DNA from: Hydrurus foetidus
Lineage: Eukaryota
Reading direction: 5' to 3'
Assembly: GCA_900617105.1 (NCBI GenBank)
Contig: UYFQ01000855.1
Span: 1 to 41,421, forward strand
DNA: 41,421 bases
The notes under the pieces were generated by a model that worked only from the letters and a program-made list of their open reading frames with translations, made no database searches and was not told where the DNA came from. Positions 8,348-41,421 of the stretch are shown here, piece after piece. Each line of letters opens with the position of its first letter. Position 1 is the first letter of the stretch. Made by a program: the position numbers and the translations under genes.

Positions 8348-8367
8348 GTTGGAATTACTGCATTGCC

Positions 8368-13208: not shown

Positions 13209-13352
13209 TACCGTCTCACACGACGGGTGCGGAGGATTCTCGCACTTTTCAGCGCGCCGACACCCCTACTACCGAAAGCTGAATCACACTGGGACTCGAG
13301 CCGGCGGCCTTTCGATTACAGCCGGTTATTTAAACCAACTGCGTCAACACTC
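13158..13352 (-). ncRNA. tRNA-Tyr-like head plus structured 3' domain, module A (putative Pol III/SINE-like RNA)
   Basis: Minus strand: A-box-like TGACGCAGTTGG (from 13346), loop CT-GTA-AT, B-box GGCTCGAGTCC (13302-13292) at canonical tRNA spacing, structured domain 13272-13205 with a GAAA-capped hairpin, then T5 at 13162-13158. Confidence 0.45.
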
Positions 13353-13406
13353 GTTGGTATTACGACCGCTAATTACATATAGATACGAGACACACATCAT
13401 CTGTTT

Positions 13407-13415
13407 GAGAGGGTG
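13407..13415 (+). promoter_or_regulatory. Copia-1 polypurine tract
   Basis: GAGAGGGTG immediately 5' of the 3' LTR. Confidence 0.8.
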
Positions 13416-13637
13416 TGTTGATCACCGTACATACACACAGTACGTACACGTCGCGTACACCGTACATACACACAGTACGTACACGTCGCGTCGTACGCTA
13501 TCAGATTCAAACACATGCAATGTAGTCACAGTACCTCATAATGAATTCTCCAGTTTACACATAACTTAGTTCCAACACTCGTGAAACACGTAAATTACTT
13601 TCACATTTGGTACGCAATCAAATCTGCGTCATCAACA
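13416..13637 (+). repeat. Copia-1 3' LTR
   Basis: Direct repeat of 8126-8347, followed by TSD CGGCT. Confidence 0.97.
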
Positions 13638-14042
13638 CGGCTGTGTTGGGGAGTACAGACTTTTTTGGTAAAATAAAACGTAATACGCATACAGATGTCT
13701 GATAGCCTCGAGATCTCAACTCTCATCGCATAGAACTCTGCAGAAATCATTCGATACTGGATGTTATCGGATACCATCCAGCACCTCTTGTAGGTGAATA
13801 CGTGACGTATCTGATGCAGCGATTTGTCGAGCTGAGCAAAAATTACTCTAAAAGCAAAGCTTTTGAAGGTGATAACGACCTCCTGTTTCAGTTCATGGTT
13901 TCATAAGCAGTATTTTACCTTTGAGTTTGCTCTCCGACATACTGAGTCTTTCAGACTAGGTCGCTCATAACCCAATTGTTGGGACTATTGCATGATACAC
14001 AGTTTTTTTGTTCCTTGACATTCTTGAAAATTTAATTTCAGG

Positions 14043-16659
14043 ATGTCAAAAGGTGCAAAAGACATCACACTGCCGATCGAATACTGCGCGTTCATGGTGG
14101 CAATAATGATGACCCGTTACGAAACCAACTTTGAGAATAACAAAGTTCAACAAACAGTCAAAAACATTGCGAAAAAATTGAATTCTCTACGATTCGGACA
14201 GAAGCCAAATTATCACGTCACGGCACTAGCTCTCCACCATGGTGTAGCCATATTCAGAAAAGTTTCGATATCACAAGGCTACATGGTTATTGAAATGTAG
14301 GTGAAGACAAGCAGCTTCAAGAATTCATGTCTCTGTCGGGTGGAAAGAGAGGGTACGAAGTGAAGTTTCCCGATTTTGAGACGTCAACTTTGCCTGAGGA
14401 CTATACTGAAGAAATTCTCAATAATGCAATATTAACAAAGAAAGATTTCATTCTGCTGAAAAGCAATCATGCTAAATCAGTATTTTATTCGTGCTCCTCT
14501 GTTTCTATGGAGTTATTCGTCGATAGTGATGCGACGGTGAAAAAAAGTACAGAAAAAGAGGAAACATACTTATCGCCTCCTGCAGCTGTAGAAAAATATT
14601 CATTCAAAGCAAGGAAAGCGATCGACGAACTAAGTGATCGTTCAATCAAAAATAACGGCAAGAGAATTCTTGAATATGTGGAAAATGGTTACGGAGTTGT
14701 AGATGCAGAACTATAAATAAATGCAGCATATGATCTAGTTGTCAAAAATAATAGAAAGAATGGTACGCCTGAGTTAAGATCAATATCTTATTTAGAGCAA
14801 ATAAACGGGAAAAAAAATTACGATGAGGGAATTTTCGATAATGATATGCGAGTAGTGAGTGCACTAAGAGTGATTGAAAAAAAATGTGTTGTAATGTCTG
14901 CGAAAGAAAAATGCCAAATACTCACAGTGTTTGACGCTGTTAAATCTGTACTGACTGAAATTGGTATTGCAGATATCGACCATGAATCAGCTGAAGCAAC
15001 TCATAAATTGATACAATCACACAGTCAACTCTGTAACATGAGTATCAGATCGATTGTAAGGCTTAACGAATGCAGAGGCGCCGTATTAAAACAAAGAGGG
15101 ATAACAATTCAAACTAAATTTGAGGCCGAGGTTTGGGGTAACTTAATGTTGTGTTACTTCGACACAAACAACAACATGGTGAGAACAGTACCGTGATTTA
15201 TAATCATTTGTACTGCGTTTCTGTACTTACACTTATACCTGCACGTACGTACATAAACATACAGATTAACGATGAAGCTCCGATGGAAGCCAAAATTAAA
15301 TTCAATGTCGTTTACTCCTACGATGTTATTATAGAAACAGCAAAGGAGGTGCAGTCAAAATTGACTTGGCAGTCAAATGAGCAAGTCATAAATTTACAGT
15401 TATCAACTTCGTGGGTTCGAGGAATGTTAAATAGAGCATCACTAAGAAGGCGAAAGATTACGAGAGAAGATAAGGTGATACCAAGCATAAATGTGATAAA
15501 GGCCATTCTGAGGATAGGACAAGATATGTGCCTAGCTAAAGGTCATGATGAGAACACTATATTCAACATGGATGAGACAGCGTACACTTGGGCGGTTGGA
15601 CCCACGCACCTGTACGTCCCTTGCGATCAAGAAAGGGCATCAAATTTGGGGGTTGCAAACACAAAACTCTGCATTACAGCAATTATTACTGTTGGTGCTA
15701 ATGGTGCATTCGCCCCTCTGATGATCATAATCAAACATTCGGTATGCTCCAAAGTGCGTCCAGATCAGTCTAGAATGAAAGTTATCAAAGATTTGTTTAG
15801 ATGACCTGACTTCGGAGAAAGAAACGGATGGCGCTTAGTTCTGTGGGAGAAAACAATGCAGATTGGAGAAAAAATGGAAGATCATAAATGTTGGTACATG
15901 ACTCATGATCAAACAAATCAAGTTATAACGAGCCAACACAAGGCATGGTACGATCAAGTCAGAATGACAATGTGGTTAGAATTGATAATGCTTCCCATAA
16001 AGATGAGATTAGGAAAAATTTTAATATGGTTTGATAACTGCGGCTGTCATAAAACTGCTATAGTGCAAGACTACATTGAAGAGATCGGAATAGATGTGGC
16101 TTATCTTCCTCCTAATATGACGGCGATATCACAAGTATTAGATTTGGTAGTTAACGGTCCTCTCAAGGCACACGTTAGACAGTTGAGAGCTAAGAGATTA
16201 GTACGCAGTTTCAAAGAATTCATGGAGTTTTACCGTCAGGATAGTGAAAAAATTGAGGGCGAAAGAGAAAATCCGACTTTTTTACCGCCTAAACCGGAAA
16301 TGGTGCAAGCTGGAATAGATCTATTCCAGCTATTCGAGAACGGATTTAAGGAGGAAAAATTCAGAAATGGGATTAAGTCATCATTCATCAAAACGGGGAC
16401 TATGCCCATCAGATCCAACGACTCAGACGCCTACCATTTTGTTGAATATACTGCTAATCTGATAAACGGTACCATGAAAACCGTTGTCCCCACAGGGACC
16501 AAAATGGAATCGGTCGTAGGCCCAGTTGCAAATGATGAAATGATGCTAGAAGAGGCAATAAACATGTTTGTGGATGGCGAGGACGTCGACGAAGTCACTG
16601 ATGAGAGTGTAGAAGCCGAGGACAGCTTAGACGGAGTGACTGAAGAATGCGATGAGTAG
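14043..16659 (+). pseudogene. pogo/DDE_1-type transposase, disrupted
   Basis: Catalytic motifs IFNMDET, IWFDNCGCH and YLPPNMTAISQVLDLVVNGPLK, with 35 residues between the 2nd and 3rd D. CENP-B-like LSTSWVRGMLNRASLRRRK. Intron 15179-15264. In-frame stops at 14714-14716 and 15802-15804 and a frame break near 14270-14300. Confidence 0.85.
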
Positions 16660-16789
16660 TGATATTCAAATTATCACATAAGTATTTTTTTCAATTTCAT
16701 TTTATTCCACTTTAGTTAGTTGCAAAATAAAATTGCGCGACAGCAGTTTAAGCTCATTAATTTTAATTCCAACATGTTCAAATATTAAA

Positions 16790-17305
16790 TCAAATTATAC
16801 GGGTAGGATTCAATCCTTTCTCATGCATATATAGCATCAGTGAATCAATCCAGGTAGTTGAGTTGTTAGATTGCACGACAATATCAATATCGTATCCTAG
16901 TTTACTACAGTTCGTGTCATTGTAGCTCAGCAGGACAACAAACAAACAACCCGATTTGTAGCGAGAGCAATCAGTTGCACTCGAAGGATTACCCTCAAAA
17001 CCTGCATCCATCAATACCGCCAGGACTTTGGCACAATCTTTCGCAACGTGTCCAATGTGCTGTCCGTGATCAAAACGAGCACCATCTCCATCGCCGCCTG
17101 AGCGTGGAGCCTTAATCTGGATGCAGTTACTGTCTGTAAAAAATGATGATCGATTACTATCGTCGAGGGTTGATATTTAGAAGGAGGCCAAACGCTCACC
17201 ATGAACGTTGGCACTGTTGCGAAGTAGAGCGCAGACTGTTCCTTGGAGGACCTTGAAAGCGGAAACTCCCTTTCCACGGCTCTTGACCTTGATAATGTCT
17301 TTCAT
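16790..17305 (-). CDS. HIRAN-domain protein (149 aa), cargo gene inside the pogo-like element
   Basis: Exons 17305-17200 and 17133-16790 joined by a 66-nt GTGAG...TTTTACAG intron. Product MKDIIKVKSRGKGVSAFKVLQGTVCALLRNSANVHDSNCIQIKAP...GQHIGHVAKDCAKVLAVLMDAG... matches the HIRAN pattern L.R...N..D.NAI.V...G..IG(H/Y)V....A..LA.L.D.G. Confidence 0.7.
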
Positions 17306-17734
17306 GCTGTTGATGAAAATAAGGTTATAATTTTGAGACAAAAGCTGGGTATTATGGTCTGTAACTGCTTTTCGATATATTAGAATGGAGTTTCTTGATG
17401 ACTTTCGACGGTAGTCATGTGCTATAGAGGCCAATCACTCGAATCCAAAAGCAAGCAGGTGAAATTGTCGGATCGAAAAAATATCTCGCTTAAAAAGTCG
17501 AGATGAGTGCTGAAATTCAACAGGTAGAAAATTGAAGGTGCACAGGATGAGAAACAACTTACTTCTCTCCAATCGGTGATGCGTGCACTTTTATCTTGGT
17601 CTGTGAGTTCTAGCGATTTGGATGTTGATAGACCTACGTTGCAATGCTCTCGGAGATCGGACTATTACCACCACACCACTGAGACTTTTACCAAAAAAGT
17701 CGTCGGAGACGGTATCCGGGGAAAATGCACTGTA

Positions 17735-18175
17735 GTAGTTGTATAGTATAATATGTGTACGTTATGCGGCACGTACGTACGTAAGCACATAAGTATATAT
17801 GCTAACATGCAAACGTACACTCGTACTTACACATGTTAATGCATACTTTTAAAAGCATGCGTACGCATACATACTTACACATGTACGTACATAGTCAATA
17901 TGCACGTACGTACGCACGCCTATAGCATAGCATACACCGGTATGGTCATGCACACACGTACACACGTACGTGCACATGTTAGTGCATACTATCATATGCA
18001 TACGTAAACACACGTACCTACATATGTACGTAAATATATAATATGTACGTATGTACGATCGCCTGTAGCGTAGTACATAGATGTATAGGCGTACATACGT
18101 AAGTACCCCTGTACTTACGCATGTGCGTTCATATACAGATACATGCATACGTATTCCTGTACTATCGCCATGTAG
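17735..18175. repeat. Low-complexity alternating purine-pyrimidine tract (TACGTA/TACA/TGCA-rich)
   Basis: About 440 bp dominated by tacgta, cacacgta, catatg and gtac words. Confidence 0.75.
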
Positions 18176-18378
18176 CAGTTAGTATGAACCCTCTGACCAC
18201 ACGCGAATGAACGTTCGCTTTTCATGATTCTTCAGTATCGCCAAAACACTTTGTTACTGTAAGCCTTCATTCAACGTTCCTCAAGCACATGCTATGAACA
18301 ACACATCTCGCTGTGAACTTTGTCTCAAGGTAGTTCCAATGTCATGAACTGTTCCGATAGCTCTTTTGCATGGCTATC

Positions 18379-18876
18379 TGTAAGATCTAATCAGAATTTA
18401 ATACGTTGTACTTCACAGCTTCGTCTACTCGATAGCTCACTGAATTGAGACAGTAGCCTGCAGCTACTTCTCCACCTTCGCTGCGAACGCTAGAAGGTGA
18501 CATCTTGTCTTTAGTCTTACAAGTTCCTCTCGAATAGCACGTTACTCAGCCAAAAACAACCGGTTGTTGAGTAAAAGGACTGCTTAAAAGTTCTCTGCGC
18601 GAGGGATTTTGGATTTTCCAGGCGATGCACTGGAAATCGACGAAAGGGACGAAGGAAACTATAGGAAAGAGACGATATCGGAGGCGAGTGACGTCACTGT
18701 GGCCCAGAAGGAACTAGGCTAGCGGGCTAGGAGGTGTTGGTTAGGCTTACAAGGGGTTGTCAAACTGTGAGAAGTGTAGGAAAACATCCTAATAGGTGGT
18801 TAGGAGTCTACCTAGAAGTCTACAGTGTGTTTGGGTATGTACCTAAACAGACGGAATGGGACCTCAGGCGGCTACA
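18379..18876 (-). mobile_element. Possible solo LTR
   Basis: TGTA...TACA termini with near-duplicate flanks GCTATC/GCTATT, no ORF. Minus strand shares short words in the same order (CCAAAATCCC, CAGTC, TGAGTAAC) with the LTR-like region at about 38700-38752. Confidence 0.3.
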
Positions 18877-18878
18877 GC

Positions 18879-19100
18879 TATTAGGACCGCAGAATAAAAC
18901 TTCGAAACGGTAATCCTGCACAGGGGAGGGTGCACAACAATAGCACTTTCAGGACTTTTCTATACGAAAAGTCCACAGAAAAATGAAAATTGGTTTAATT
19001 TTTCATTTTTTGTGTACTTTTCCGGTGTGCATCCCCCCTCATCAGACGTTTTTTTCTTTTTTCAGTGCGAAAGTGCAACTTTTATTCTCCGGGCGTAATA
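18879..19100. mobile_element. Imperfect about 220-bp palindrome (foldback MITE)
   Basis: Nested inverted pairs: TATTAGGACCGCAGAATAAAA / TTTTATTCTCCGGGCGTAATA, GGGGAGGGTGCACA / TGTGCATCCCCCC, and GAAAAGTCCACAGAAAAATGAAAATT / AATTTTTCATTTTTTGTGTACTTTTC around a centre near 18993. Confidence 0.65.
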
Positions 19101-19110
19101 CAGTACAGTA

Positions 19111-20057
19111 TACCAGTGCCGGTAATAACGCGGTTTCGGTAAAAACGCGGTTATTCGACCCGGCAGGTCCGATATCTCTCCAAATTCTTCATGAAAAAGT
19201 TTTTGTCAAACATTCTCACAGGTAGTTCCTATTTACTACGGTGACTAGACTCTAGCGCGACTTTTTTTAAATTTAAAATAAATTGCAAGAAACACTTTAT
19301 GTGTAGCTTGGAGGATTTCGATTTGCAATAGCTTCATCAAACTCGAAAACGAAACTAGAGGAAAGTCACCACATTTTAGCTGAAGCATAGCAAAATAATT
19401 GGTCAACAAATTTTAAACTGAATCAGAACCAACCACTTGCAGAATATGAATCAATAGGTGTTATTTAATTTCTTTGAACTTCCGTTAAAAATGCTTTATC
19501 CTCATCTTGGTTTCACCAGCCAGCAGGGTAATTGAAAAGTGCTACTTCCATTTCGGCAGTCGATTCTTTTGATAACCATAATGTCCTTCCTGATATTCCT
19601 ACTCTTTTAATTTCGCTCCAATTCATCTTGATTGCATCTGAAGAATGGTCATCAGTTTCAGAGACCAAAAATGTGCCTTTTTCACGTATTTGGGATGCGA
19701 TTTCCCAATATTTCAACGAAAAAGGCACATTTTTGGTCTCTGAAACTGATGCATCTCAGTGACTATCGTGATTTGTACGAAATCCTCGCGTATCCATACT
19801 AATATGACTGCTGCCTACAAGATAGAATACCTAACTCATACTCTTGCTTCATCTATATCCGACATTGGTGAATCGCCAAAAGTGAATAATGTCGATCTCG
19901 TGATGAAATCATCAATTTTAGAAAATTATAATAATCGAAACGGATGTAAAACTATCGAAGTATCTGTGAGAATGTTTGACAAAAACTTTTTCATGAAGAA
20001 TTTGGAGAGATATCGGACCTGCCGGGTCGAATAACCGCGTTATTACCAGCGCTGGTA
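19111..20057. mobile_element. Non-autonomous TIR element (MITE) with TA flanks, Tc1/mariner-like
   Basis: TIRs 19111-19221 and 19964-20057 (94 bp; the left copy has a 17-nt internal duplication). Ends TACCAG...CTGGTA with TA on both sides. No intact transposase. Confidence 0.85.
19650..19751. repeat. Perfect 34-bp inverted repeat (hairpin) inside the MITE
   Basis: CATCAGTTTCAGAGACCAAAAATGTGCCTTTTTC (19650-19683) is the exact reverse complement of 19718-19751. Confidence 0.95.
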
Positions 20058-20255
20058 TACGGTATACGCCCTCGGAACGAGGTGCCCCCTCTTTATTTCC
20101 CCCAAAGGGATAGAGCACGATCCGCCGGATTCCCCAGCGAATTCTCAAGAGGATTCAACTTCGATCTGAAGTCTGAATGAAGCCTTCAAGATATAATACG
20201 GAATATTCCGCAAATAAACACCATATTATACGACTTCATACTCAGTACTTTACCG

Positions 20256-21392
20256 ATGTCAACACAATTAAAACAATTATCAAATATGTCCTCACCTGAG
20301 TGGACTCCTGCACCTTCGGTCACAGCACTATTCGAGACAGCACTTGCTGGGAACAAGTGGGCTGGCACGAATGCCCCTACTGCAGGACCGAGGACTGAGA
20401 AAGCTTTGCCCTCTGGAAATGCCAAGTTTCAGCTTTACTCACTTGCCACGCCTGTAAGATATGCTTTTTTTGTGAAACAAATTGTTATGATTTCTCATTC
20501 ACTAAACTTCGCACATCTCATTCAAAACGATTTAGAACGGACAAAAGGTTAGCATCCTGCTGGAAGAGCTCGGCATTGATTACGATGCACATGGTGAGAT
20601 TTACACTGAATTTACTAACATATGCTCTCAACTGATTCGTATTGAATGGGCTGTGGTCATTACATTTATTCCTGCAAGTTGTGAACATTATGGATGGGTC
20701 CCAATTCACGAGCGGATTTTGCGCTGTAAATCCAAACTCCAAGATCCCAGCGGCAGTGGACAACGACGGTCCTGATGGGGAGAGGATAGAACTCTTTGAG
20801 TCTGGATCGATAATTTTGTACCTTGCTGAGAAGCACAAAAAGTTCTACCCCACAGATGTTAAATTGAGGGCCCAGATAATGAACTGGATTTTTTGGCAGG
20901 TGAAGTATGTTAAATCAGAGCAAATACTGTTACAGCTTGAACAAAACCCTCCATTCAGATCTTAATGGTATCGTTCATTTCTCTCAGATGGGTGGTCAAG
21001 GTCCTATGACGGGGAATTTCGGGCATTTTTTCGTGTACGCCCCAGCATCTAAAATTGAGACTCGGGACTACGGAGTGGCAAGGTACGGCATGGAGGTAAT
21101 GCGCCTATCTGACGTCCTTGATAAGCATCTTGCTTCACGGACTTATCTGGTGGGAGAAGAATATACCATAGCGGATATGACCTGCTTCACTTGGTACTAC
21201 CAGCTGAAGAACTACAAACACGCTTGCGGCGTCACGGCAGCAGAATATCTCGGCATGGAAAAGTACACACATGTGAATGCGTGGGCAGCGAGAATAGCCG
21301 CTCGTCCTGCTGTACAAAGAGGGCTGCAAGTGTGCGGCTTCAATGGTGTTGCCAAGCCATGGCTTGTTTCCAGCTCGGCGGTAGACGCATGA
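20256..21392 (+). CDS. Glutathione-dependent disulfide-bond oxidoreductase, YghU/YfcG (Nu-class GST)-like, 4 exons
   Basis: Exons 20256 (or 20286)-20453, 20536-20593, 20679-20899, 20988-21392. Motifs QLYSLATPNGQKVSILLEEL, VNPNSKIPA, LFESGSIILYLAEK, WQMGGQGP, EEYTIADM, RPAVQRG, plus a YghU-like N-terminal extension. Confidence 0.92.
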
Positions 21393-22225
21393 AAGGAAAA
21401 GGACGAGGCGCGGAAGAAGCAATGTCATTTTCAACGCTACAGTCAATTTTCACGAAAATATGGGTTTTAATACTTTGAAAGGCATAGTGTCTGAAAGTGA
21501 ATTGATTCATCGCGGCTATCGGACATGAAGTAACCCGGCGTAAGAGACTGCCGGTAATGCTAAATTTCTAATACACCTGCGGCTTTTGGGGTAATGTTTC
21601 CCCTTAAATATACTTTTCTTCCGCAAACAGTTGCCCTCAATGTAGCACATTTTTAAGCTAATTTATCTATAATTATTACAAGCGGCCGATTTGACGAGTG
21701 TGCTGACATGCGTCTCTTGCGTTAGTTGGGTGGACTGTGAAGTTTGTTTCACAGGAACACTTATGACGGAGGACGATTAGTCAGCCACCGCCGTAATTCC
21801 TCGACTTTTCCGTAAAAAAGGGAAGAGGATAATAGGGTCTACATGTACTTATTACTTCGCTGTCGTCAATGACATCGGGAGAGTTCACAAAAGGGACTGG
21901 GGTCATCTGATAAAATAGGTGCAAAATATTTCTCGAAGCAAAATCAATAGTCGCATATCATAGGCAAAACAGCGGGAGGATAGGGTAAAAGAGGACTTTA
22001 CATCATATCATCTGTAAGATTGCTGGGCGTTTGATCCCTGTAACATCAATCTATAGAGGTAAAAGCTCACTACAGCGCCTTAATGCGAGATGGAGCGCGT
22101 CTCGGCTTCTTTCGGCTCTAGTAGTTAAGGACGTTCTCGGAATCGTGGGATCCATAGTATTCCTGAATATCCGATGGTGAGGTGCAAGTTACTTATCACC
22201 GAAATTATTATGCTGTCCTGTAAAC

Positions 22226-24657
22226 TCAGGGGTATTGCGAGAAGCGCGGAAATGTCACCTTCGAGTCGCTGCCAGAGGAGGTTCTCATGGCGGCACGGGC
22301 AGCGGCAGCCCTTGTTGCCGGGTTAGACCGCTTGAATGTCGCTTTCGCAAGATGGCTCGCTCTCGTGCTGGCAGCTCTCGTCGAAGTGTCTGCGGCACGA
22401 GCGTTAGCAAGTAAGGTCCTGACGGGGCCGATCTTCTTGGATACGTCAAGAGCAGTCTTCCCGTCCTGTGAATGAGCACGAGAAACTAGTACGTGAGAGC
22501 TGATGGATAAAGAAAATTCCACTACGAGTTGGTTCGGGATAAGCTGCTACCATAGTCCGACTCACATTTCCGCAAGCTTCAACGTTGGCGCCCCTCTCCA
22601 GCAGCAGCATCACCACTGCCACGTGGTCGAAGTGGGAGGCTTTTATGAGTGCAGTCTCGCCGTTCTGCCAAATTTATGAAATCAAGGAGGAAGAAGTGAG
22701 GCAAGCTGCATCATAGCATGGCATGGCAGTGTCTCCCAACATGAAGGACCCAGACACTGTGACTGACTAAACATATTGTCGTGGCCACTAATGCTGATTA
22801 AATGAGGTCTGAAAGTCCCTCAGTGGAGAACATGTGACACAGTAATCAATCGGATAATAAGTGCATGCAGTGGAACATTGTCAGATATGTGTCAATTCAA
22901 GTCAAGTGGCCAGCAATGAAACGTCTCACGAAAAAGGTGGATGTATTCACTTTCTGTAAAATCAGACATTATGTCTTACATTGTTAGAGGCCTCTATGTC
23001 TGCTCCTCGATCTAGTAGAGTGGTAGCCACCTCCAACTGCCCATAATACGCAGCCATGACGAGAGCTGTGCCACCCCCCTAAAATCACAAGGAGAGAGAA
23101 TAAAAAGTAGAAAAATTATTTGAACAGAAAAGTTTGACGATGCAGTCCTTTCATTTCTTCTTCGTCGTGAAACAGATGCTATGGTTGTTGCTTTAGACTC
23201 TCGCAGCGCGGATAACGAGAGACGCGGTGAAGATGCGGAGTGTGTAGTATGTCTTACGTGTTGAGGAGCAGACTCTATGTCGGACCCCTTATCCAGCAGC
23301 AGCCTCACTGCCTCAGCATGACCCTTGGTGGCGGCCTCCATCAGAGCGGAGTAACCGGCCTGTAACAGCGATGTCGAGGTGAGATAAATGACTAACAGAC
23401 AGGTCACGGTGGATTGCAGCACATTCGACAGATGATGCACTTCGGCAGGGCACTTCACAAATAGCACATTGTTCAGTGTCTGGCATATATGGGCCAATTT
23501 GCGACGCATTGCTCGCTATCGTTACTCAGCAAACTTCCAGACACATAGGCGGGGAGGGCAGGTCTCAGCCTTCAAGCTCAACAGTCCTCCCCACAGAAGG
23601 CACTGAGTACTGTCCCTCCATGACCATGCTGCTAGAATATAAGCAGTAATGAAATTACTCACATTATCAAGCGCATCTTTATTCGCTCCTTTCTCGAGTA
23701 ACTTCGCGACAATGCCCGAGCGCCCAAAGTGTGCCGCTTTTATGAGTGCAGTGGAACCATCCTATGCGTCACGACAATCAGAATCATCATGAGATGGTAA
23801 TGCGACTAAGGCTTTGTCATAGCCAGCGCTAACAATGTTCCTGGAATAGCACTGGCTGTATTTGAGTGTATTCGTTTTCTGTGAAGTAAATTAACGTGCT
23901 TTACAGCTCCTAATGAAGATCAAATACATCGCGCTAAATTGAAATTACGAGAATGTGCTGTGACTAGATTTGTTCACGACAGACCTTTGACACTGCATCG
24001 ATGTCTGCCCCCTTCTCTACTAGTAGCGCTACTGCATTAACGTGATCACCATATGTGGCTTTGAATAGGGCTGTTTGACCGCCCTGAGAGGAATCAGGGG
24101 TAATGTGCAGGCAGTAAAGAAGAAGGCATCTTGTGACTTATGCTTTCAATGAAGTACTGGATTCTAGTGACTTGCCATGCATTCGACGTGAAATAGTGGG
24201 TTGCACGGTAAACTGGAGTATACGGTCAGACGTGTGCAATTTAGAAAATCGGTGATATGAACAGTTTAAACGCATTGAAGAAAACTGTCGGATTGCTTTT
24301 CAAGCGATGAATTATCATCGGGCGATGGTCAGCAAGTTACTTTAGATTGATTGTGGAAAAGTGTGTTACTTCGAGAAATTCTAATCGGTAAGACACTAAC
24401 CGGATCCCGGAAATTGATTTGAATACCGTCTTGTAAGCTTCCAAGAATTTCCGATAGATCTCCACACTCCGCTGCGCTAAGCAGTCGGCCACCCTGCGGG
24501 AAGAATTGTAAGAGTATCAGCAACGACTTCAACAGAAAAACGAATTGATTGTAAATTTGGTGACCCGCCGGAAAAATTAGAAGACAGTCAGTGAAGTATA
24601 CTTCAGTGCTTCTGGTGCTGTCGGAAGCGACAGATGCAGCAAAAGTAGTCTTACCAT
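22226..24657 (-). CDS. Ankyrin-repeat protein, about one repeat per exon
   Basis: Exons: ATG 24657-24655, 24493-24401, 24083-23985, 23761-23663, 23359-23258, 23078-22980, 22664-22566, 22465-22226. All introns are phase-0 GT-AG. Repeats read G.TAL..A...G....V..LL(E/D)(K/R)GA(D/N). The 3' end may splice further. Confidence 0.85.
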
Positions 24658-25007: not shown

Positions 25008-25214
25008 TTTTGGAGATAATATCGTAGTTTATGACACGGACACAATCAGTGTACTTATGCACTCGTACGGTCGTACGGATTAATTTGTGTGTGTGTGTGT
25101 GTGTGTGCGTACATGTGTGACGACGATGAATGGACCCGTGCATCGTCTCTGTACTTCAAGCGTAGTGTAGAATGTATTTTGTTGTTGCGTTGAAAGGGAC
25201 TCGGGGACTTCAGC
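25008..25214 (+). repeat. Copia-2 5' LTR, upstream piece (contains a (TG)n tract)
   Basis: Near-identical to 35481-35684. Confidence 0.95.
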
Positions 25215-25361
25215 GGGAGCAGGTATCCAGGCCAACGAACGAGGCCAAAAGCCAGGCCAGAGATAGTACAGCATTCACATTTCCCACATCCATCACTTCA
25301 CTTGTTCATCTCAGTCTTCAGTCTAATTATCTTTCCAATAAATCAGCAAATTATTTCGACT

Positions 25362-28300
25362 ATGGAAGAATCCGATATGATTCCAGTGGACAAGACTTTC
25401 ACTAGTCCGCCAGTGGAGGACCCTATCGCAAGTTTGCCACCTTTTGAGGAGGCCAGAAAAAGAATCAATCTCGCTTTGAGAGACGTGAAACAAAATAATG
25501 TCCCGCTTGAACGATTTCCCTGCCCGATTTTCCATGGGTGTCGACTGAGTTCTGTTGGTGCTGCCAATTTTAAGACAGTGGAAACTTTGTTTTTGCATCT
25601 ATGTAGCGTGCAGGACCAGAGGAGATGGTCATCGAAAAGTGGATATATTACTTCTAGAGGCATCAGAGCACACAGAGGTGTCTGTTCGAGATCAGGAACG
25701 CAAAAGCACAATCTGATGCATCGCAATTTGAGAACTTCACCTAAATGCAAGTGTATGGCCTCATTTACGCTTTTTGATGACGGCAGCGTGGTCTTCAAAA
25801 ATGAACACAATGAGCTTTGCCTACCAGATCCAAATATGGGTAATGATGGCTATGTCTTTAGTGCAGGGCTATCACCAACGAAAAAGCAAGCAATCATTGC
25901 TAATATCTCAGACATGCTGAGTGACTACGGCACAACACCTGCTGCTGCAAGGAAACAAATAGAACATTCTTTGGTGAAAAGTGGTGACACTGGATTCGGC
26001 TTAGGTAAATTTTTTATGATCAACCACCATATATGTACTTCAACATTTAACTAATCAGCACAGCTATTGGCACTTTCAGGTCAACTGTGTGCGCCTCCGA
26101 CGTCGTTTTCCAAAAGTATTATCCTCAGCGCGAAGAAGTCCACTGGATTTATTTGTGGGTCCAATGTAGACTCTTTGAATGAGTTCCTACAAAATTTAAT
26201 TGATGAAGAATTGCCCCACAGAATACTTCACGATAACGACAACGACGTCATCAAGGCTGTAAGCTTCCATGATCCGAAATGGCTCCCTGAAAAGGCAATA
26301 AACAATCAACTACAGTTCAATGTCGCTGTGTCTGATGTCACTTTCGGTATAACATCACCTAGAAGTGGCATCAGCAAATGGTCCTTTATAACACTTCTCA
26401 CTCCTGGTCACGAAGCTTTCGTTGTAGTAGCTTCAGCTATAACTCAAGAAGACACAATGACTTTTATGAATGAGATGGACGTGTTGCTGGACCTTTATCC
26501 AAACTTGAAGTATGACAGCTGGGTTCTCATAGTCGATGGGGATCCTGCGAAGTTTAAAGCGGCAAGAATCAAATTTGAGAGGGTCCGTATCATCCTCTGT
26601 TTGTATCACGCAACAGAGAATATCAAAAAGCACCTTGGTCACCTGTGTCTCACATTGAAGACTGAAACTCCAGGCAAGTTACCTTGGTCACCTGCAACTC
26701 ACATCAGTTGAGATGGCAGCTTCTCTAATAAGTTTTGTCCCTGCTTTCATTGTCAGGCATTCCCCTAATCAAGAGCCGCTGGATTCAATGCGATTTATGC
26801 TCGAAGTGGCGCAAAATATGCAACGAAAAAGAATTTCCTGAAACGTTTGTTTGCAACTCTGATGGTCAAGATGCTCCGTATAATGTTTGCGATGCAGATG
26901 TGGAGGAAGGACTTCCGAAGTTGTTCGAGGCGGGTCAGGATAACTTAGATGATGAGGTAATTAAGATTGAATGTGACATGCTTGTCCAATTGCGCTATTA
27001 ATTGTGCTACACATGGATGCTTTGAAACCAATTACAACTCTAACTTGCCATCACATCCGATAGGATTGTCTATTACTCACCAGACTAAGCACAGAGCTTA
27101 CATCTATAACATGGTACACTATTTGGAAGTACATACGGACTGCATCTAATTACTTTTGAAATTTCCAAAGTCAAAAACATATTTGGACTTTCTATGGCGA
27201 AACGTTTCAACCTGGGCAACGTGTGCATTCACGTGGGAACTTGATTATGGATTTCAAGCGAGTTCTATGTAAGAGGGTATGATAGAATTTCACTAATACT
27301 ATGATTGTTATGCCACTTGTCATCTCCACCATTGCTGTCAGAACACTGTTATGTAATTGTAACGATTATCTTGGATGAACTTTTTACATATTACTTACGA
27401 AATGATTTATAATGTTGTAGGAATACACTCAACCCTCAAGCTCAACCTGAGAAATGTTCTCATTCCGCTCCACAAGACGATTCCATTTTTTAGGGAATCG
27501 TTGACAAGGCGTAAATTGAATGTCGACAGAAAAAATTCCGGTGCATCAGTGAAATCACTACTAGAATTGGCTAGTAAGGCAGGATTTACGAGTTTCTCCA
27601 AGATTTTGACGTCCTCGCTGACAGACGAGGGGATCAAGCTCACGTTGGATCAATTTCACAAAGGTATCTGTTACAGAGTAGAGAAATTAGCAGATTCTTC
27701 TGCCATCGATGAGTGCCTACAGACCATCTTACTGAGGAGAGGACCTTCATCTGAAAGGTTTCGCTGTTTAATTACCGTAGTGGTTGACAGCAACAGCGGA
27801 GAGAGGAAATTCGTGGAAGGTGACTATTATAAAGTTAAATCGCGCTCAATCAATGGATCAACGGATATCGTTCTCATCAGCTCCGGGGGTAATATTGCAT
27901 GCACTTCACCTTCCTACGCAAGATGGGGCATCCCGAGCAAGCATATTTTTGCTGTCTTCTATGATGGCGGTATCTGCATAAATATGAAGCAGCATTTTCA
28001 CCCTGTATATCATCTACCATTTATGAACGGTATCGCTGTCGACTTCGTAGCTGACTTCACAGCTACAGCTGATATTCAAAACGGTCAAGCATTCTCGACT
28101 GACTCCACAACTTCTTGGAATTGGGCCCAACAAACATCCTCAGATTCTTGGGAGTTAATTGGCTTAGGGGGAGCTGAATTTAGTTCAGTGGCTCATCCAA
28201 CTGCCAGATCCATAAGTAAGGCACCAGAGAGCAGCATTGAAAGGACAAAGAAGACTATCAATTACCTAGTCCCGTACATAAACAACAGTTTGGAAGAGAG

Positions 28301-28610
28301 AAAGGTGTTTTTCCTATATTACGAAGGAGTGCTGAAAAGGTATGATCATTTGACAGCAACGCATTTTAAGGACATCGACTCTTTCTCTCACCAGCGATTC
28401 TTTAACATGTTCAGGAATGCCGAGAGAGCTGTGATGGAATCAAATGCTCATCGCAGAAGTCTAGGAATGGATGCTCTCGATCCAACACTTTCTGCTGAAA
28501 CCCAACCGATTGTTCCGGCATTGTCTACGTTGACCGTTGGAAGAGGCAAGAAACGTCTCAAACCAGCTGTCGAAGCCCGCAAAAAAAGAGTCATGAAGAT
28601 CTGTAAATAA
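25362..28610 (+). pseudogene. MULE transposase with FAR1/WRKY-like DNA-binding domain, embedded zf-CW and degenerate SWIM; disrupted
   Basis: Exons 25362-26004, 26080-26673, 26757-26956, 27064-27276, 27421-28610 (possible extra in-frame intron 28340-28414). Motifs CSRSG...KCKCMASF...EHNE, SDVTF, VDGD, CLYH, SSM*EGIHSTLK. Frameshift near 27150 and TAA at 27270-27272. Confidence 0.85.
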
Positions 28611-28689
28611 GTGCTTGTGTAAAACCTATTTTTAATTTAACGAAGAAATTCATGTGAGCTTACTGCAAGAGAATCTTTTAATCATGTAC

Positions 28690-30050
<1,361 letters not shown>

Positions 30051-30757
30051 ATGCGGTTGGGGATTTATTAAGTGTAGGAATGCAACATCACAGAATTCCC
30101 TCTAATATATTAGCTAATCCAATATATAAGGTGGATTGCAAGCAAAGAAAATGCCATGAAATGTAAGGAGTCTTGAAAAATCACTACGAAATTCAGTTCA
30201 GATTGATTTTAGCAGATCAGATGAAGAGGAAACTCTTAAAGTCACAACATTCCATCGCTCGCAGAATGCTAGCTGCCCACTCTAATTATCACGAATAATG
30301 ACAGGCAAAACAGTCGATCAAGTTAGTGAGAAAATAAAGCGACCACGAGGACATTCTAAATAAATGCCAACCTTCCATGCAAGATCAGCGACTGGATTCT
30401 TCTTGACAATAGTCCTCAAGAGCTTCATCCTGGTAAAAGAGAGAGAACTCGATGGATGAGAGTGCAAGCTATGATAATCAAAATCCATTAAATCTTGTAC
30501 CTTTGCTTCTGAGGGGGAAAGAATCATCGAATCGCAAAAAGAACTGCCACCAAAGCCACCTGATAGAGCGAGCCATCCTGGAGAGGACGTGATGCTGCCA
30601 AGCTTCACAGCCTTTGAATTAGTTGTGTTCTATCGATAAAGGAACTATCGTCGAGTGAGATCAAGGGATGAGGATTACTGCCACTGAATGCTGCACTATC
30701 TCTGGCCTGGCTTTTGGCCTCGTTCGTTGGCCTGGATACCTGCTCCCGGGTTTCAGC

Positions 30758-30823
30758 AGGGATGAAGCACAGTCAATTAACAAGTGTTTACTGCCATTCC
30801 AGAGCTTATTTCACGAGTCCTGA
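30758..30823 (+). repeat. Copia-2 5' LTR, downstream piece, truncated
   Basis: Matches 35685-35750, then jumps straight into gag coding sequence. Confidence 0.92.
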
Positions 30824-33800
30824 ACTATACGGGATAGTTGGCATGTTCTTCACCACAAATGTGAGATACGAGCTTCCGAGAGTTTCTTACAGGGATTACC
30901 CTGCAGACTCGTCATTGGAAAGCTCCAGTTCCGAAGAAGATGACGAGATAGTCGAAGGTCAACAGGAACAACCGCCTGACCCAGAGACCGTGGCGTACGC
31001 CGCCGCGAGGCCTGCTCGCATCGCCGCCAGACAGGCGAGGAACGAGAGGAGGCGTAAAGCGTCAGAACGCTCTAGAGCAAAATTTAAAAAAGATGATTAC
31101 ATACAGAGAAAGAGGGATATCAAAACGCAGAAAGAGAACGAACGTACAATGTACCCGATGATGTGGAAGCGCATGTCGCTGCTATCACAAAGTAGGGTGC
31201 GGGAAGAGGAAAATTTCAAGACCGCATATGACACCCTGGACTGTGTCATGCTGTGGACACTCATAAGAAGGACTCACCTCACACACATGTACGGGGGCGA
31301 TGAGACACTGCAGGAGTACAACCAACACGAACAGGAGAGTAAGTACAGCTCAATGAGGCAAGGTGAGAGAGAGCGCATTGTCACCTTCAAGAACAGATTC
31401 GATGAACAGGTGACCGCGAACGCTGCTGTCGGAATCGCCGCGGTGACAGAGTCGAAGCGAGCATTGGATTTCCTAGGGAAGCTCGACACTCGAAGGTACA
31501 AGGTCATGCTAGACGACATGAAGCACGACGCCCTACGACGCAAACCAGGGGCGTTCCCAACCACGCTCGCCCTAGCCTTCCACATCGCCTCAGAGTGGAA
31601 TGACCGAGTCCCTGCATCCACACCCACACCAACACCGGCGGGTGCGAACGCAGCGTACGTGACTGAGGGAGTCCACGTCACAGCGGCCAAGGACCCGGAA
31701 AAGAAAGCGGGGAAAGCCGGAGGTGGCAGCAAGAAATCCTTAGCAGACGTGGGGTGTAGCTCTTGTCACTGCTGATGAAATATGCTGCTTCTCCAGATTC
31801 GATGTGCTGTTAGACAACGAGGACTCGCTCAACATATTCAATAACGCTGAACTACTTACTGACCTGAGGAAGTCGCAGTCGACAATTCGAGTGAGCGGTA
31901 TCCAGCAAGGAGGAGGAGTGAGCGTAGATCGGGAAGGGGAGTTCGGAGAGTTTGGCACGGTGTACTACAGTAGTTCGGCATCGGCAAACATCCTGTCTTT
32001 CGCGTCGCAGGTCGACTCAGGTGCGTCGATCAGATATGACCACCTGAGCGACTGCTTCACTCTGAGGCCGAAGAGCAGCACGAGGATCTATCGGTTCGGG
32101 AGAAAGCGAGTCATAGGAAGCGAGGGGAGGTTCTACTCGTGCGACTGGAGAGATGTCGAGCACGACAAAGCGTTAGTAACTACGGTTGTTGAGAATCTGA
32201 AAGCATTTACGAAACGAGAGATCGAGCAGGCGAGACGAGCTCGTGAGCTGCTCGCTAGGATGGGCTTCCCGACGGTGGAACAGGCGATGTCGATCGTGAA
32301 CAGCGGAAGTAGTTTCGACATTACGGCGAGAGATTTCCAGATCGCTGATGCGATATGGGGCAAAGATATAGCCTCTATAAAAGGGGAAACAGTAAAGAGA
32401 GCTACTGCTATCGCTGATATTACAGTCAGCACGAAATTAATGCAAAGGGATCAGGTGCTGTCTATCGACATTATGTTTATAGACAAACTAGCGATACTAG
32501 TTGGGGTATCTACACCACTGGGACTAACTATTGCATATAGCCTAAACACAGCAGATCTTACAAAGCCAGCAAGGACAGCAGCCCAAGTGAAGATCGGGAT
32601 AAACCATTTTATCGCGGTCCTCGCTGCACAAAACTTCAGGACCTCCATAATCATGAGCGACGGGGAGGGGGCTGTCAAGAGCCTCATTGACGAGCTGGGA
32701 AGGCTCGGCGTGGAGGTTGACGTGAGTGGAGCCGGCGGCCACGTCGCTAGGATTGAGAGAAAAATTCGCATTGTTAGAGAACGGGTACGATGTCACGTAG
32801 CGTACCACCTTCCGTTCACACTATCGACGGTGGGTATCGCCATGCTCATACTGTACTGTATATCCAGGCTGAACTACGAACCGGCCGGATTACGGGAATG
32901 GGGCCCGAGTCCGCGTGAAGCATACATCGGTAGGAAGCCTGATGGTAAGAGAGACTTTAGATGCTCGTTCGGAGATTATGTGCAATGTACCGTTCCTAAC
33001 ACTGATTCAGGATTCAAGAGCCGAACCGAGGACTGTGTGGTTATGCTCCCCCTCGGAAATCGCACGGGCTCAGTGAGAATGCTTTCGCTCAGCACAGGAA
33101 GACTAGTGAACAGGGACCAATTCAGAGTGCTACCGATGCCAGAGTCCGTTATAAAGAGACTAAATGAACTCGCGCATGCAGATGGTAGAGTGATCTGTAC
33201 GCACGGCCTACGTCGTACGAGCAGTACGGGAACGCTGCCAAGGGGCTGCCTGACACGGTGGAACCCAACGTCAACAACGGTGTGGATCCATCGATAGAAC
33301 CTCTAGATGACGACCGTGAGACTAGAAACGAAGAGGTAGACAACGGTGACCAGCATCAAGACAGTGGAGGAGAATTGGGTGAACAACAGTACGACAACAG
33401 CGAAGCACCGAACGAAGTAGACCCGAGGGACAACAGTGAACCATATGAGGAAGCGGTACAGGCCGAACAACCTGAAGAGCACGACAATGATATAGATGAT
33501 CTGGTCGATAGTATGAACCGGATGCGAGCTGGACCGAGGGACCAAGTTGAAGATCCCACGGGGGGACTAGATGAGAGGGGTATACCGGAGGACTACACAT
33601 CGACAGACGGGACACGAGACGAGTACAGCGAAGCGAGAGGAGCAGTGAGCCGAGCGACGGAGCTGCTCGCTGCACCTGCACCGCACTACGGGATAAGTAG
33701 ACATGAGGTGATGAACTTCTTTAGGAACGGTGGTGGAACCGCACTTCTAACGCGCAACTACGACGGTGACGGTGCAGACTGGGGAGACTATGTACTGAAC

Positions 33801-35414
33801 ATATCGGTGAACGAAGCGCTGAGGACCAGGGGTGATGCGGCGCTGAGTGTGATTGAAAAAGAGCTAAAGCAGATGATCGATAAGAAGGTGTGGGCACCTG
33901 TCTCTGTGAGCGACCTATCAGCGGAGGAGAAGCACCGAATCATCAGGTCAAGCATGTTCCTGAAGGAGAAATTCCTCGCGAGCGGGGAGTTCGAGAAGCT
34001 TAAGGCGAGGCTGGTCGCCGGAGGGAACCAGCAGGATCGAGATCTATACGATGATCTATCGGCACCGACAGTTGCGACGAGCTCAGTGTTCACACTGCTG
34101 AGCATAGCAGCGCACGAGAATAGGATGATCACAGTGATTGACATCAGCGGCGCATTCCTCAATGCGGACATGGATACGGGACTAGCTGTGCACATGAGGT
34201 TAGATAGGAACATGTCGAACATTATGACTAAATTGGCTCCCCATTACTCGCGCTTCACAGATCATAAGGGGTGCATAGTGGTGAAGCTGGACAAGGCACT
34301 GTATGGGTGTGTGGAGTCGGCTGCACTATGGTATGAGAACCTGAGAGCGAGCCTGTCCGATTTGGGATACTCACCCAATGCACACGACATGTGTGTCTTC
34401 AACAAACACGACGAGTACGGGGTGCAATGCACTATTGCGGTGCACGTAGATGATCTGATGATCACTAGTGCGAACGGTGAAATGATCGAGTCAGTGTCGG
34501 CCGGTCTGATAAAAAGGTATGGAGACATTACGAGGAAAAATGGACCTATTGTGAATTACCTAGGCATGGTGTTCGACCTTACCACTGCAGGCAGAGCGCG
34601 AGTGTCGATGACGGGATACGTGGAGGACATGCTGAGGGAAAGCGGTACAACAGGGGGTGCAAGGACCCCAGCAACGGAGGGGCTGTTCGATGTGAGAGAC
34701 GACAGCGACATGGCGAGTGAGGAGCAGCGGGTACGGTTCCACAGATTGGTGGCGAAAATGCTCTACCTGGCGAAGCGTGCGAGGCCCGACTGTCTGACGG
34801 CGGTGGCATACCTGGCAACACGGGTAACACGGTGCAGCGTGGACGACCTTGGGAAGCTTGAGCGTCTGTTGAAGTATGTGAACAACACGAAGGATAGAGG
34901 TATAGTGTTCGAGGCAGGTGCGAAGGGAATCGTCGTGAGTGTTCTCATCGATGCGGCGTACGGAGTACATCCGGACGGGCGGTCGCACACAGGGAGCTGC
35001 GTGGTGATCGGAACAAGGGGTGCGGTGCATAGCAAATCAGCGAAGCAGCAGATCGTCACCAAGTCGAGTACGGAGGCGGAGCTCGTTGCATTATCTGACT
35101 CAACTAACCAAGCGCTTCACATGAGACACTTCATTATAGGACAAGGACACACGTGCGGACCAGTGACAGTGTACCAAGACAACATGTCATGCATGTCACT
35201 GATCGAGAGAGGGCGGTCAGCGGCGGAGCGGACGCGCCATATCGCCATCAGATACTTTTGGCTCAAGGAAAGAGTGGATCAAGGAGAAGCGAGAGTGCGA
35301 CACCTGGGGACCAAGGAGATGTACGCGAACCTTCTGACGAAGCCGCTACAAGATGCACAGTTCAACTGCGAGAGACAAGGGCTTACGGGATGGGATGCAA
35401 CGACAGTAGTTTAG
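30824..35414 (+). pseudogene. Copia-2 gag-pol, 5'-truncated with two frameshifts
   Basis: gag to ...KKSLADV, frameshift near 31750 with no zinc knuckle, then PR (VLLDNEDSLNIF) and INT (SIDIMF, SDGEG, IERKIR). Second frameshift near 33190, then RT (KLKARLVAGG, DISGAFL, LYGCVES, HVDDL) and RH (IDAAY, KSSTEAEL, ANLLTKPL). Confidence 0.92.
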
Positions 35415-35480
35415 TTGAATTATTACGACAGCATATGCGTGATGTGTGAATAGAAATGATTGTGATGTGGCGTAGGGGTG

Positions 35481-35817
35481 TGTTGGAGATATCGTAGTTT
35501 ATGACACGGACACAATCAGTGTACTTATGCACTCGTACGGTCGTACGGATTAATTTGTGTGTGTGTGTGTGTGTGTGCGTACATGTGTGACGACGATGAA
35601 TGGACCCGTGCATCGTCTCTGTACTTCAAGCGTAGTGTAGAATGTCTTTTGTTGTTGCGTTGAAAGGGACTCGGGGACTTCAGCAGGGATGAAGCACAGT
35701 CAATTAACAAGTGTTTACTGCCATTCCAGAGCTTATTTCACGAGTCCTGATCGAGTGACCTTCAACCACAGTACAGCGAGAGGCGTACGTGTGGGCCAAA
35801 CCGAAGATCCGTCAACA
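35481..35817 (+). repeat. Copia-2 3' LTR (337 bp)
   Basis: TGTTGG...GTCAACA, preceded by PPT and followed by TSD CTCGA. Confidence 0.95.
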
Positions 35818-38423: not shown

Positions 38424-41421
38424 TGTGACCCGCACACCCGTACGGGCTGTACGGGTACAGGCGTAGGTTCGGATCGGATCGAGGACGATCCGATCCACCC
38501 GATTCATTGCCATGATACCTGCTGTGTTTATCTGTAAGCTAACCACATTGTTATTCATAGCAATAGCTCTCCCAGCTTCCTTTCCCTCGCTCCCGCTCCC
38601 AGCTGACCCGCTCCCAGTGCCCAGATCCTGGCAAGGCCACAATACCGGTATTTGGAACCAGCTAGCGATCTCTAAGATCCAAGTTGACCAAACGTCCAAA
38701 CCAAAAATCCCGCAACGACCGTAAAACAGTCTGAGCAAACAAGTTGAGTAACTCTCTAAGAGTGAAAACCACCCGAAACGCTACTACAAAGGTCTCATCA
38801 ACGCGACAGCCTCTGAATCGTAGTCAAATTGGTGATATATTCCCAAAATATCGTGCAGCTCTTCTACGCGAAGGCTTACGAAGGAAAGGAACTTGCAAGC
38901 AAGTAACACCTCCCAAACTCGTTCACGAACGAAACCCAACGCGCCCACGCCCAGCTTCGTACCTTACGAAGCCGCCGCCCACGTCCAAATTTTGTTGCGA
39001 TTTCCTCCCGAAATCGCACCAAACCATTCCAATCCCCCTGACTCCTACTACCACATCCTTTACCTACTATTCCTCACACTCGAAGAACCTACTCCTCTTT
39101 TCCCTGAATCACCGCGTCCGCGTCCCGTCGCTGTCCAAGACGCAGAGTTCCAGTGAGAATTCCACGCCAAGTTTTCAAGATGGTTAAGGCCCAAAAACCC
39201 AAGAAAGAGAGCTCTAGCGAAGCTAGCTCGTCTTCCAAACGCTCCAAACCCCAAAATATCCTCTTCCTATCGGATAAAGAGAAGGCTAAACTCGAGCGTC
39301 TCGCTCGAGAAGACAATATAGCCAACTCCATGAAGACGCTGGGCAAATCGGCTATCAAAGCCTCGAGCACCCATACGCGCATATCCGACGAATTGGCGGC
39401 AAACGAAGCACGCTTCCTGCAGCTACAGCAAGAACGTGAACGCAATCGCGTGCGACTTGAGGTGCTGCAGAAACAGGCTGACAACAGATCTGATCTCGAA
39501 GATCAAGAACTAAAAGACTTGTCAGCCTGGATGCAAGAGACAAATGACTTACACAGTCTAATCCCTCAGTCAGATGAGGATGGCTCTCCAATCCGACCCC
39601 AAACCGAAGAAGAAGAGGATATCAATCTTTCTCAAACGGAAGAGGGCGACGATAAAATCGGTACCAAAACATCTCCGAAGGAAATTCTCTCCGACGATGA
39701 TAACGTCTCGGTGTCTAACAACGCCTCTGAAGAGGCGGAAGACGAACAATCCAATGACGAGGAAGAGGAGGAAGACAACAACCCTGACGATACCAAGTCC
39801 AAATCGGACGAGGAAGATCAAAGTGAGTTGGAAGCGTCAACCCCGCCGTCACCAAAACCGAAAAAGAAAAAGGCTATGCCAATCAAACCCCTAGCCAAAA
39901 CAAGGGAGGCAAAACCAACTTCTGCCGTCCAATCTGAAGACAAACCCACGCGTGCTACCAGATCCAAAACGTCCAAAGCAACGGTAGCAGCTGCAAAGAA
40001 GCCAGCGACAGCTTCCACGAAAGCGGCTGCCACTTCAAACCGCAAGCGCAAAACCGAAGAGGCCAACACAACCTTCGAACAACAACGAACACCCCAAGCA
40101 CTCACAACTTCCCTCATCAACATGAAGGAAGTGTTCTATGTAACACGTGAGACATTACTGAAGGACATGGACGGCACAGCCCGAAAGTTCTATACACAGG
40201 CGCACCGCCCTCAGTTTAATGCACCTTGGAAGGATCTCATCGAAGACGAAGCTGTCCATGTGATCCGAGACAGTCTGCTTCAAAATCGAAAGACTCTCGG
40301 ATACACAATCAAAATGTGTCAAACCTGGCCCATCATCGACGACAAACTCCTGTCCATTCGCGACATGGCCACCGATCTCAAGAAACTCTTCTTCAGTGAT
40401 CGCGCCACAGAGTCTACCTATGACTTGGACCTTGCCCTGAAAAACTGGCAAATGAAGATCAAATGGCAAAACCCAAACGTAGAGTTGGCGGCAATTGCAC
40501 GACTCCGAGACATCCTCTTCGGATACTACGGCAGCTACGACAATATCCCTGCAGACCGCCAACATGAGATCTGTAAGATCATCTACAAAAAGCTCCCTCT
40601 TGATAATAAGTTCACTGAAAACTTCATGAACATTACAAAGGACAAAACAAGAAACAACAAGAAAGATTCCATCCCAAACATGTTGTGCCGAATGAATCTC
40701 TGCCTCAGTGAAGCTCGGCAAACAGTTATCAACGCGTCCAACATGGGTGGTCTTCGTTACGACTTCGAGACCAAAATCACTCCCGACACATTGTCGTCCA
40801 GCAACATCACGCAGCTCTCCGCCTCCTACCGCACAATACCCAAACGCGAATCCGACGCCTACCCAGGGTTGAGCAAAACAGTCGAAACTTGCCACACCTG
40901 CGGTCGCGCAGGACACAATCGCTACGATTGTCGCAATTTTATGAACCCTCATTGCAACAACACGTGCTGCACGTGATACCAATCCACGATGGCTACAGAG
41001 TTCAGGAGAATTGGCCACGACCAATTCGTCCCAAACGTCCTACTAAATGGCGAAATGACCAGAACGACCAACAATCCTGGCGCGGCAACATACGTCTATC
41101 CCACAGATGACGTCGAAAACGACATGGGTCCCGCCGCAAAAGACGACCCTCGCAAGTCCAACAACAACAACAACAAGGAAGCCAACAACAACAACAACCG
41201 TAACAACGACCAGTCCAACCGCGACAACGACCGCAAAGACAATCGCGACAACGACCGCAAAGACAACCGCGACACCGATCGCAACGAAAATCGCGATACT
41301 CGCGACATCAAAGACCGCGGGTACAAAGGAAAACGTGAGTCCAAAATTCCGTATGCGGAAAATATCTCGGAAACTCGTATTTTGCCAAACATGCAACTGC
41401 TTTTATCAACAATCATACCCA
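38424..41421 (+). mobile_element. 5' portion of a probable Ty3/gypsy-type LTR retrotransposon, truncated by the window end
   Basis: Starts TGTGAC, then about 750 bp non-coding with hairpins, then a long gag-like ORF. No second LTR or pol in the window, so superfamily and boundaries are inferred. Confidence 0.5.
39180..41421 (+). pseudogene. gag-like ORF with acidic/basic N-terminus and CCHC zinc knuckle; single internal TGA
   Basis: CHTCGRAGHNRYDC (CX2CX4HX4C). The frame stays open after TGA 40974-40976 to the window end and includes N/D/R-rich 24-bp repeats. Confidence 0.7.

Follow-up and report, generated by a model that had tools for sequence, protein, structure and literature searches.

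A predicted CW zinc finger in the transposase of a MULE pseudogene from Hydrurus foetidus

The MULE and its target site

The window, i.e. the whole stretch of 41,421 nt from Hydrurus foetidus (contig UYFQ01000855.1) that was analysed, contains a MULE at positions 25215-30747. Its terminal inverted repeats (TIRs) comprise 63-64 nt, with arms that are 98% complementary (left TIR 25215-25277, plus strand; right TIR 30685-30747, minus strand). The element interrupts the 5′ LTR of a Copia element, of which the first part lies at 25019-25214 on the plus strand and the remainder at 30758-30823; the RVT_2 match of this Copia falls within 33189-35411. The twin 3′ LTR (about 35480-35750), which shares 99% identity with the 5′ LTR, carries the empty site, which sets the length of the target-site duplication (TSD) at 10 nt. 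The left copy (25205-25214) equals the empty site, and the right copy (30748-30757) matches the left one at 8 of 10 positions, the other two being mismatches. If the terminal C/G is counted as part of the TIR, the TSD is to be read as 8 nt with 6 matching positions. The element thus has both TIRs and a TSD within the 8-11 bp described for MULEs (Dupeyron et al. 2019, PMC6446971). Transposition of the window copy was recent and took place in trans or not long ahead of its decay. Low-complexity simple repeats occupy 28690-30050 of the element, where 1.4 kb of GTGA, TAAA and CAT repeats represent a real microsatellite or a long-read artefact.

The neighbouring host gene on the minus strand (21900-24657) encodes ankyrin repeats according to Pfam. 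Its predicted ATG at 24657 opens an ankyrin-like exon and lies 558 nt from the MULE end, in agreement with the earlier note on this DNA, which had placed the insertion in an LTR about 560 bp from a host start codon. That note had also taken the site as a hint of targeted integration, and here we do not follow it: before the MULE arrived, the Copia LTR already lay at a distance of about 355 nt upstream of this ATG. As the Copia element took this site first and as it is a single case, the promoter-near position of the MULE says little on targeting. Two further host genes were recognised, a GST gene at 20181-21392 (plus strand, Pfam) and a long gene at 1062-7774 (minus strand), a candidate RRP5 gene.

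Gene model of the transposase

The transposase gene was modelled as five predicted exons, all on the plus strand like the element's introns, yielding 963 residues with X at two breaks. Exon 1 (25362-26004) encodes the N-terminal region with a tentative FAR1/WRKY-like zinc domain; this region is without a Pfam match and was placed in the FAR1 cluster of the Atlas (0.90, 144 shared features). Exon 2 (26059-26673, alternative acceptor at 26079) supplies D307 (codon at 26334), D374 (26535) and a CxxH motif (26598-26609). It is followed by a predicted GC-AG intron of 83 nt in phase 1 (26674-26756, reading CAG/GCAAGT...TCAG), which leads into exon 3 (26757-26956). The zf-CW finger is encoded at 26777-26908, with W428, C431, C434, W437, C452, C464 and E469-E470. 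A GT-AG intron of 107 nt in phase 0 (26957-27063) separates exon 3 from exon 4 (27064-27276), which specifies insertion-domain helices, a conserved Trp and the catalytic Glu (27273); a distant copy has a GT at the equivalent place of this intron (loose end at 26945). Exon 5 (27421-28610) encodes the remaining catalytic helix, a degenerate SWIM-like motif and a basic C-terminus. The order in the spliced model is D307, D374, C395-x-x-H398, CW 428-470 and E567.

Splicing of these exons is predicted from the DNA. At the GC-AG intron the phases match and the intron sequence is diverged in a sister copy; similarity ends at this site in eight of nine close relatives and slightly earlier in the ninth. 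The entry into exon 3 through this intron, as proposed before, is thereby supported, and VDGD (D at 26535), CLYH (26598-26609) and the Glu (27273) are located where the proposal implied. A direct joining of exon 3 to EGIHSTLK, which the same proposal contained, had to be abandoned due to a phase mismatch: exon 4 intervenes and itself encodes the Glu. The frame of exon 4 from 27064 is fixed by the pattern of differences among sister contigs from public runs, as 21 of 30 exonic differences found among 40 rows (97 further rows lie outside this count) are synonymous in this frame, whereas only 5 and 4 are synonymous in the two alternatives. The alternative acceptors at 27083 and 27089 were rejected on the same grounds. 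Skipping of exon 3 was discarded as well, since its 200 nt would shift the frame.

A motif at the SWIM position (model residues 728-742) is degenerate in the window, which gave no Pfam SWIM match; the relatives P0052 and P0082 match the SWIM profile. A SWIM finger behind the catalytic domain is common in MULEs but not obligatory. Only one Cys and the His of this motif are kept in the window, and it is also eroded in the CW-bearing relatives P0011, P0015 and P0018. Two RNA runs of one sample carrying the same species label (about 6% of the data) yielded 34 and 45 reads, all from the LTR part and none from the transposase, in a count made without a host-gene control and with most reads less than 99% alike, to which we attach no weight.

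Lesions of the window copy

Compared to sister copies the window copy is missing 31 nt at 27148. Furthermore, its codon at 27270 is TAA, whereas a sense codon is present there in most sister contigs (in run X1, at 3445 of 3553 depth units). A relative with 61% identity (P0114) is continuous across both places. As it stands, the window transposase ends after 517 amino acids. Because of the 31-nt loss and the nonsense codon the copy is dead; it is a pseudogene and lacks the intact frame of an autonomous MULE. A sequencing error at 27270 was considered and rejected, as the T is also present in the depth minority of runs X1, X2 and X3, of which X1 may be the source of the window.

The CW finger

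The peptide encoded at 26777-26908 matches Pfam zf-CW (PF07496) with 36.5 bits (cut-off 27.5, E 5e-9, profile positions 2-46 of 47), and its best sequence matches in the PDB are MORC3 CW chains (E 1.6e-5). The earlier note had already read a zf-CW pattern from the exon at 26757-26956. The Pfam scan suggested at that time gave a divided result for the predicted product, with zf-CW above its cut-off and the MULE profile below it (exon 2, E 2.8e-4, 21.7 bits, cut-off 27.6); unlike the window, some relatives exceed the MULE cut-off. The finger begins about 30 residues past the CxxH motif and precedes the catalytic Glu. In the alignment with the MORC3 CW domain all four Cys are kept and W428 and W437 correspond to both pocket Trp, whereas the position of MORC3 Glu453 is taken by Gly, with a Glu-Glu pair one and two residues earlier, and the core Trp of the fold is replaced by Phe. 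Zinc binding by the transposase finger would be expected.

The CW pocket is described as consisting of two Trp and a variable C-terminal residue completing it, which differs between binders (MORC3 Glu453, ZCWPW1 Trp303, ZCWPW2 Phe78; PMC9043364). The MORC2 CW domain, which is without the floor Trp, bound no histone peptide according to PMC5811534. The retention of both cage Trp in the window thus makes a histone reader plausible. By analogy, methylated H3K4 would be a likely ligand in those members that have both Trp (W/W members), and the likeness to MORC3 and ZCWPW2 would favour the di- and trimethylated forms.

In a divergent sister contig 26752-26920 is retained, with 20 differences in 169 nt, and the flanks do not align. 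At 80% identity, exon 4 of more distant family members aligns and exon 3 does not.

Relatives and spread of the insert

Exon 2, which contains no CW sequence, was used as query and yielded 109 representative homologs. A total of 62 of these, selected for length or for extending past the CxxH motif, were scanned, and 15 matched zf-CW (9 above cut-off), always downstream of the CxxH region. Neither a missing zf-CW match nor an absence of the exon from other copies, each of which would have spoken against the earlier note, was observed, and divergent relatives share the architecture. A profile of our own matched 20 of the 51 homologs in which a recognisable CxxH is followed by 70 or more residues, a count that is circular for the 15 sequences from which the profile was built. 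In P0010, P0015 and P0018 both Asp, the CxxH motif, a W/W finger and the Glu are arranged in a single reading frame, and these unbroken frames settle the architecture independently of RNA.

The core of the window transposase is just 35-54% identical to that of seven W/W carriers, so the cage has been retained through deep divergence. Nevertheless, of 30 inserts with four Cys, chosen with the profile or by eye, only 10 contain both Trp and 15 an aromatic pair, according to which many members have lost histone reading or can do without it. The Cys are nearly invariant among CW carriers, and relatives differ in the length of the linker, which ranges between 28 and 110 residues.

At the same site 6 of the 62 scanned homologs match SAP or HeH, with only P0084 above the cut-off. 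SAP/HeH-like modules, some labelled by eye, were noted in a sister group (P0020, P0038, P0043, P0064, P0081, P0082, P0084 and P0090), and some relatives of this group have no domain there. An unrooted tree was calculated without the insert from 42 homologs and the window, the other 67 of the 109 being too short or missing a motif. It contains a branch of 17 rows, 14 of them SAP-like, with a support of 94/93 (not starred). Two changes account for the four-Cys insert on this tree, and a single clade was not rejected (AU p 0.40, for a group named post hoc). P0023, P0025, P0028, P0032, P0035 and P0040 form a starred sub-branch (100/98), in which the four-Cys insert lacks the cage Trp and is followed by an Ala-rich stretch. 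In this sub-branch the CW finger has possibly been turned to another use.

The records of ten homologs that were looked up are unnamed or designated 'hypothetical'. With only exon 3 as query, a word-based search had no match among 7 candidates. Of two metagenome locus scans, one had no match among 179 stretches and the other a single weak one among 216. An Atlas search with P0010 returned just generic MULE clusters (<0.9).

Structure of a relative

An AlphaFold model was obtained for the relative P0010, which is 48% identical to the window over exon 2, from an alignment of 65 rows (pLDDT 90, pTM 0.82). It consists of an RNase H core with a CxxH helix (211-222), a beta-hairpin (237-252), a low-confidence linker, insertion-domain helices starting at 303 and a Glu helix (362-377). 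The linkers flanking the finger are weaker (pLDDT 65 and 48). The insert was superimposed on the MORC3 CW domain with an rmsd of 1.9 over 46 columns and on ZCWPW2 CW with Z 7.1 and an rmsd of 3.1 over 51 aligned residues; exon 3 of the window folded alone reached a pLDDT of 44.

Both programs used for structural comparison named the IS256-family transposase ISCth4 (PDB 6xg8, PMC7780238) as top match of P0010 (E 3e-5; Z 14.8, rmsd 5.0, 279 aligned). Both enzymes have an RNase H core interrupted by a helical insertion domain that is led by CxxH, but the prokaryotic ISCth4 is only about 10% identical and has a minimal insertion domain of four helices with nothing between helices 1 and 2. Insertion domains are described to expand by additions at this very place, to touch flanking or target DNA and to bind partners such as RAG2 (PMC7780238). 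According to the model the CW finger is predicted to reside on flexible linkers between helices 1 and 2. Its former description as lying inside the DDE domain holds for the order in the sequence; structurally, in the P0010 model, it occupies a loop between helices of the insertion domain.

Comparison with known systems

With MULE/Mutator transposases as described by Dupeyron et al. (2019, PMC6446971) the family shares TIRs, a TSD of 8-11 bp, a tentative FAR1-like N-terminus, a degenerate motif at the SWIM position and a DDE enzyme with CxxH and helical insertion domain, the last being evident from the window residues, the Pfam matches of relatives and the P0010 model. It differs in the CW finger, which Table 1 of that paper does not give for any of its 50 groups, and in a SWIM motif with just one Cys and the His. 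The fingers given in that table are SWIM, FLYWCH, CCHC, C2H2 and a RING as well as PHD for the outgroup Rehavkus, also a mobile-element enzyme with a domain of the chromatin-reader type but of another fold.

Chromovirus integrases likewise carry a reader-type domain with a fold other than CW, a chromodomain at the C-terminus. The CW domains of MORC3, ZCWPW1/2 and ASHH2 share the four Cys, the two pocket Trp and the beta-hairpin fold with the transposase finger (rmsd about 2 Å for P0010 vs. MORC3) but belong to host chromatin proteins, and the third residue of the pocket has no conserved position.

Another comparable system is RAG1-RAG2, a recombinase of the DDE type that also has a helical insertion domain and is both recruited and stimulated by a linked H3K4me3 reader (PMC5175335); for the transposase, reading by CW is predicted. 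RAG differs in being a domesticated enzyme with the PHD finger on a separate subunit, whereas the MULE would carry its CW in cis on a mobile transposase. A transposon-encoded CW domain was not described in the literature searched, which did not extend to Repbase Reports and most subscription journals, and the search for literature on Zisupton/SAP found nothing. The branch of MULE transposases with a CW finger in the insertion domain is real and, within that literature, apparently undescribed.

Possible role of the finger

In W/W members, and given H3K4 methylation in the host, the finger might bind methylated H3K4 tails, serve as a tether of the transpososome on nucleosomes where active genes start and thereby bias insertion, as the PHD finger of RAG2, which brings RAG to H3K4me3 (PMC5175335), does for RAG1. 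We give this reading, the leading one, about an even chance; any effect on target choice is putative. Mu insertions of maize correlate with H3K4me3 (PMC2774946), and plant MULEs favour the 5′ ends of genes although no CW is listed for them in Table 1 of PMC6446971. The bias towards 5′ ends therefore needs no built-in reader, and a CW finger would not account for plant Mu. A wider interpretation, which we put forward tentatively as somewhat less than an even prospect, is that in this undescribed branch the loop between helices 1 and 2 is a swappable chromatin-sensing slot, filled with an H3K4me-reading CW or with SAP/HeH depending on the sub-branch. The CW members would then be single-chain analogues of RAG1 plus the RAG2 PHD, which read the mark on their own and direct cut-and-paste integration to active promoters.

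Other roles have to be weighed against tethering. The finger could bind H3K4me and yet be mainly a switch. It would keep the insertion domain blocked or in another shape as long as no marked nucleosome is bound, and binding would then license strand transfer or excision from active donors rather than decide on the site. Such behaviour has precedents, since the CW of MORC3 autoinhibits its ATPase until H3K4me3 is bound (PMC5811534), binding of RAG2 to H3K4me3 boosts catalysis (PMC5175335) and the insertion domain moves in the course of the reaction (PMC7780238). We nevertheless consider a switch unlikely, because the low-confidence linkers (pLDDT 65 and 48) and their highly variable lengths fit a tether better than a fixed switch. 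The presence of SAP/HeH at the same site in a few homologs, only one of them above the cut-off, and the lack of the Trp pair in 20 of 30 four-Cys inserts would also suit a general accessory module that binds DNA, the transposase itself or a partner protein, can be exchanged for SAP/HeH and reads no histone mark; indeed, the cage-less CW of MORC2 binds its own ATPase module (PMC5811534). This explanation is in our opinion improbable, as the complete WxQC...CxKW signature is found in ten homologs and the window despite low core identity.

There is little to recommend the idea of a captured host fragment slowly decaying in a permissive loop with no role in transposition, even though MULEs are known to capture host fragments (PMC6446971), the loop varies strongly in length and content and some relatives have no domain there. 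The nearly invariant Cys among carriers, the retention of exon 3 while adjacent introns diverged and the small number of changes on the tree (only two) all speak against such a passenger.

If the finger does tether the transpososome, a transposase with its own reader would allow mark-directed targeting to be tested through two residues, and the relatives, in which the cage is lost, SAP is present or the loop is empty, would serve as natural controls. As to the landing of MULEs close to gene starts, a 2026 preprint on 3.2 million Mu insertions still refers to unknown chromatin or DNA determinants (10.64898/2026.05.18.725947). Furthermore, the insert site tolerates whole domains, which may be useful for the design of targeted transposons.

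Further features of the window

A second young Copia-type element is located at 8126-13637, with LTRs of 222 nt that are 99% identical and an RVT_2 match. An interrupted pogo/Tc1-type transposase was found at 14028-16659 (DDE_1 match at 15805-16656), and a MITE-like element with inverted arms of 91 nt and 32 nt at 19104-20064 includes a perfect inner 34-nt hairpin at 19650-19751. An ORF of 622 amino acids (39108-40976) with a C-terminal CCHC-like knuckle appears gag-like by eye and has no Pfam match. Within exon 5 of the MULE transposase, 675 nt (27807-28481) reach a depth of 10,000-20,000 in runs X1 and X4, compared to 300-1000 elsewhere. A contig joint leads from 28481 back to 27807, possibly reflecting a tandem satellite or a circle derived from the transposase gene.
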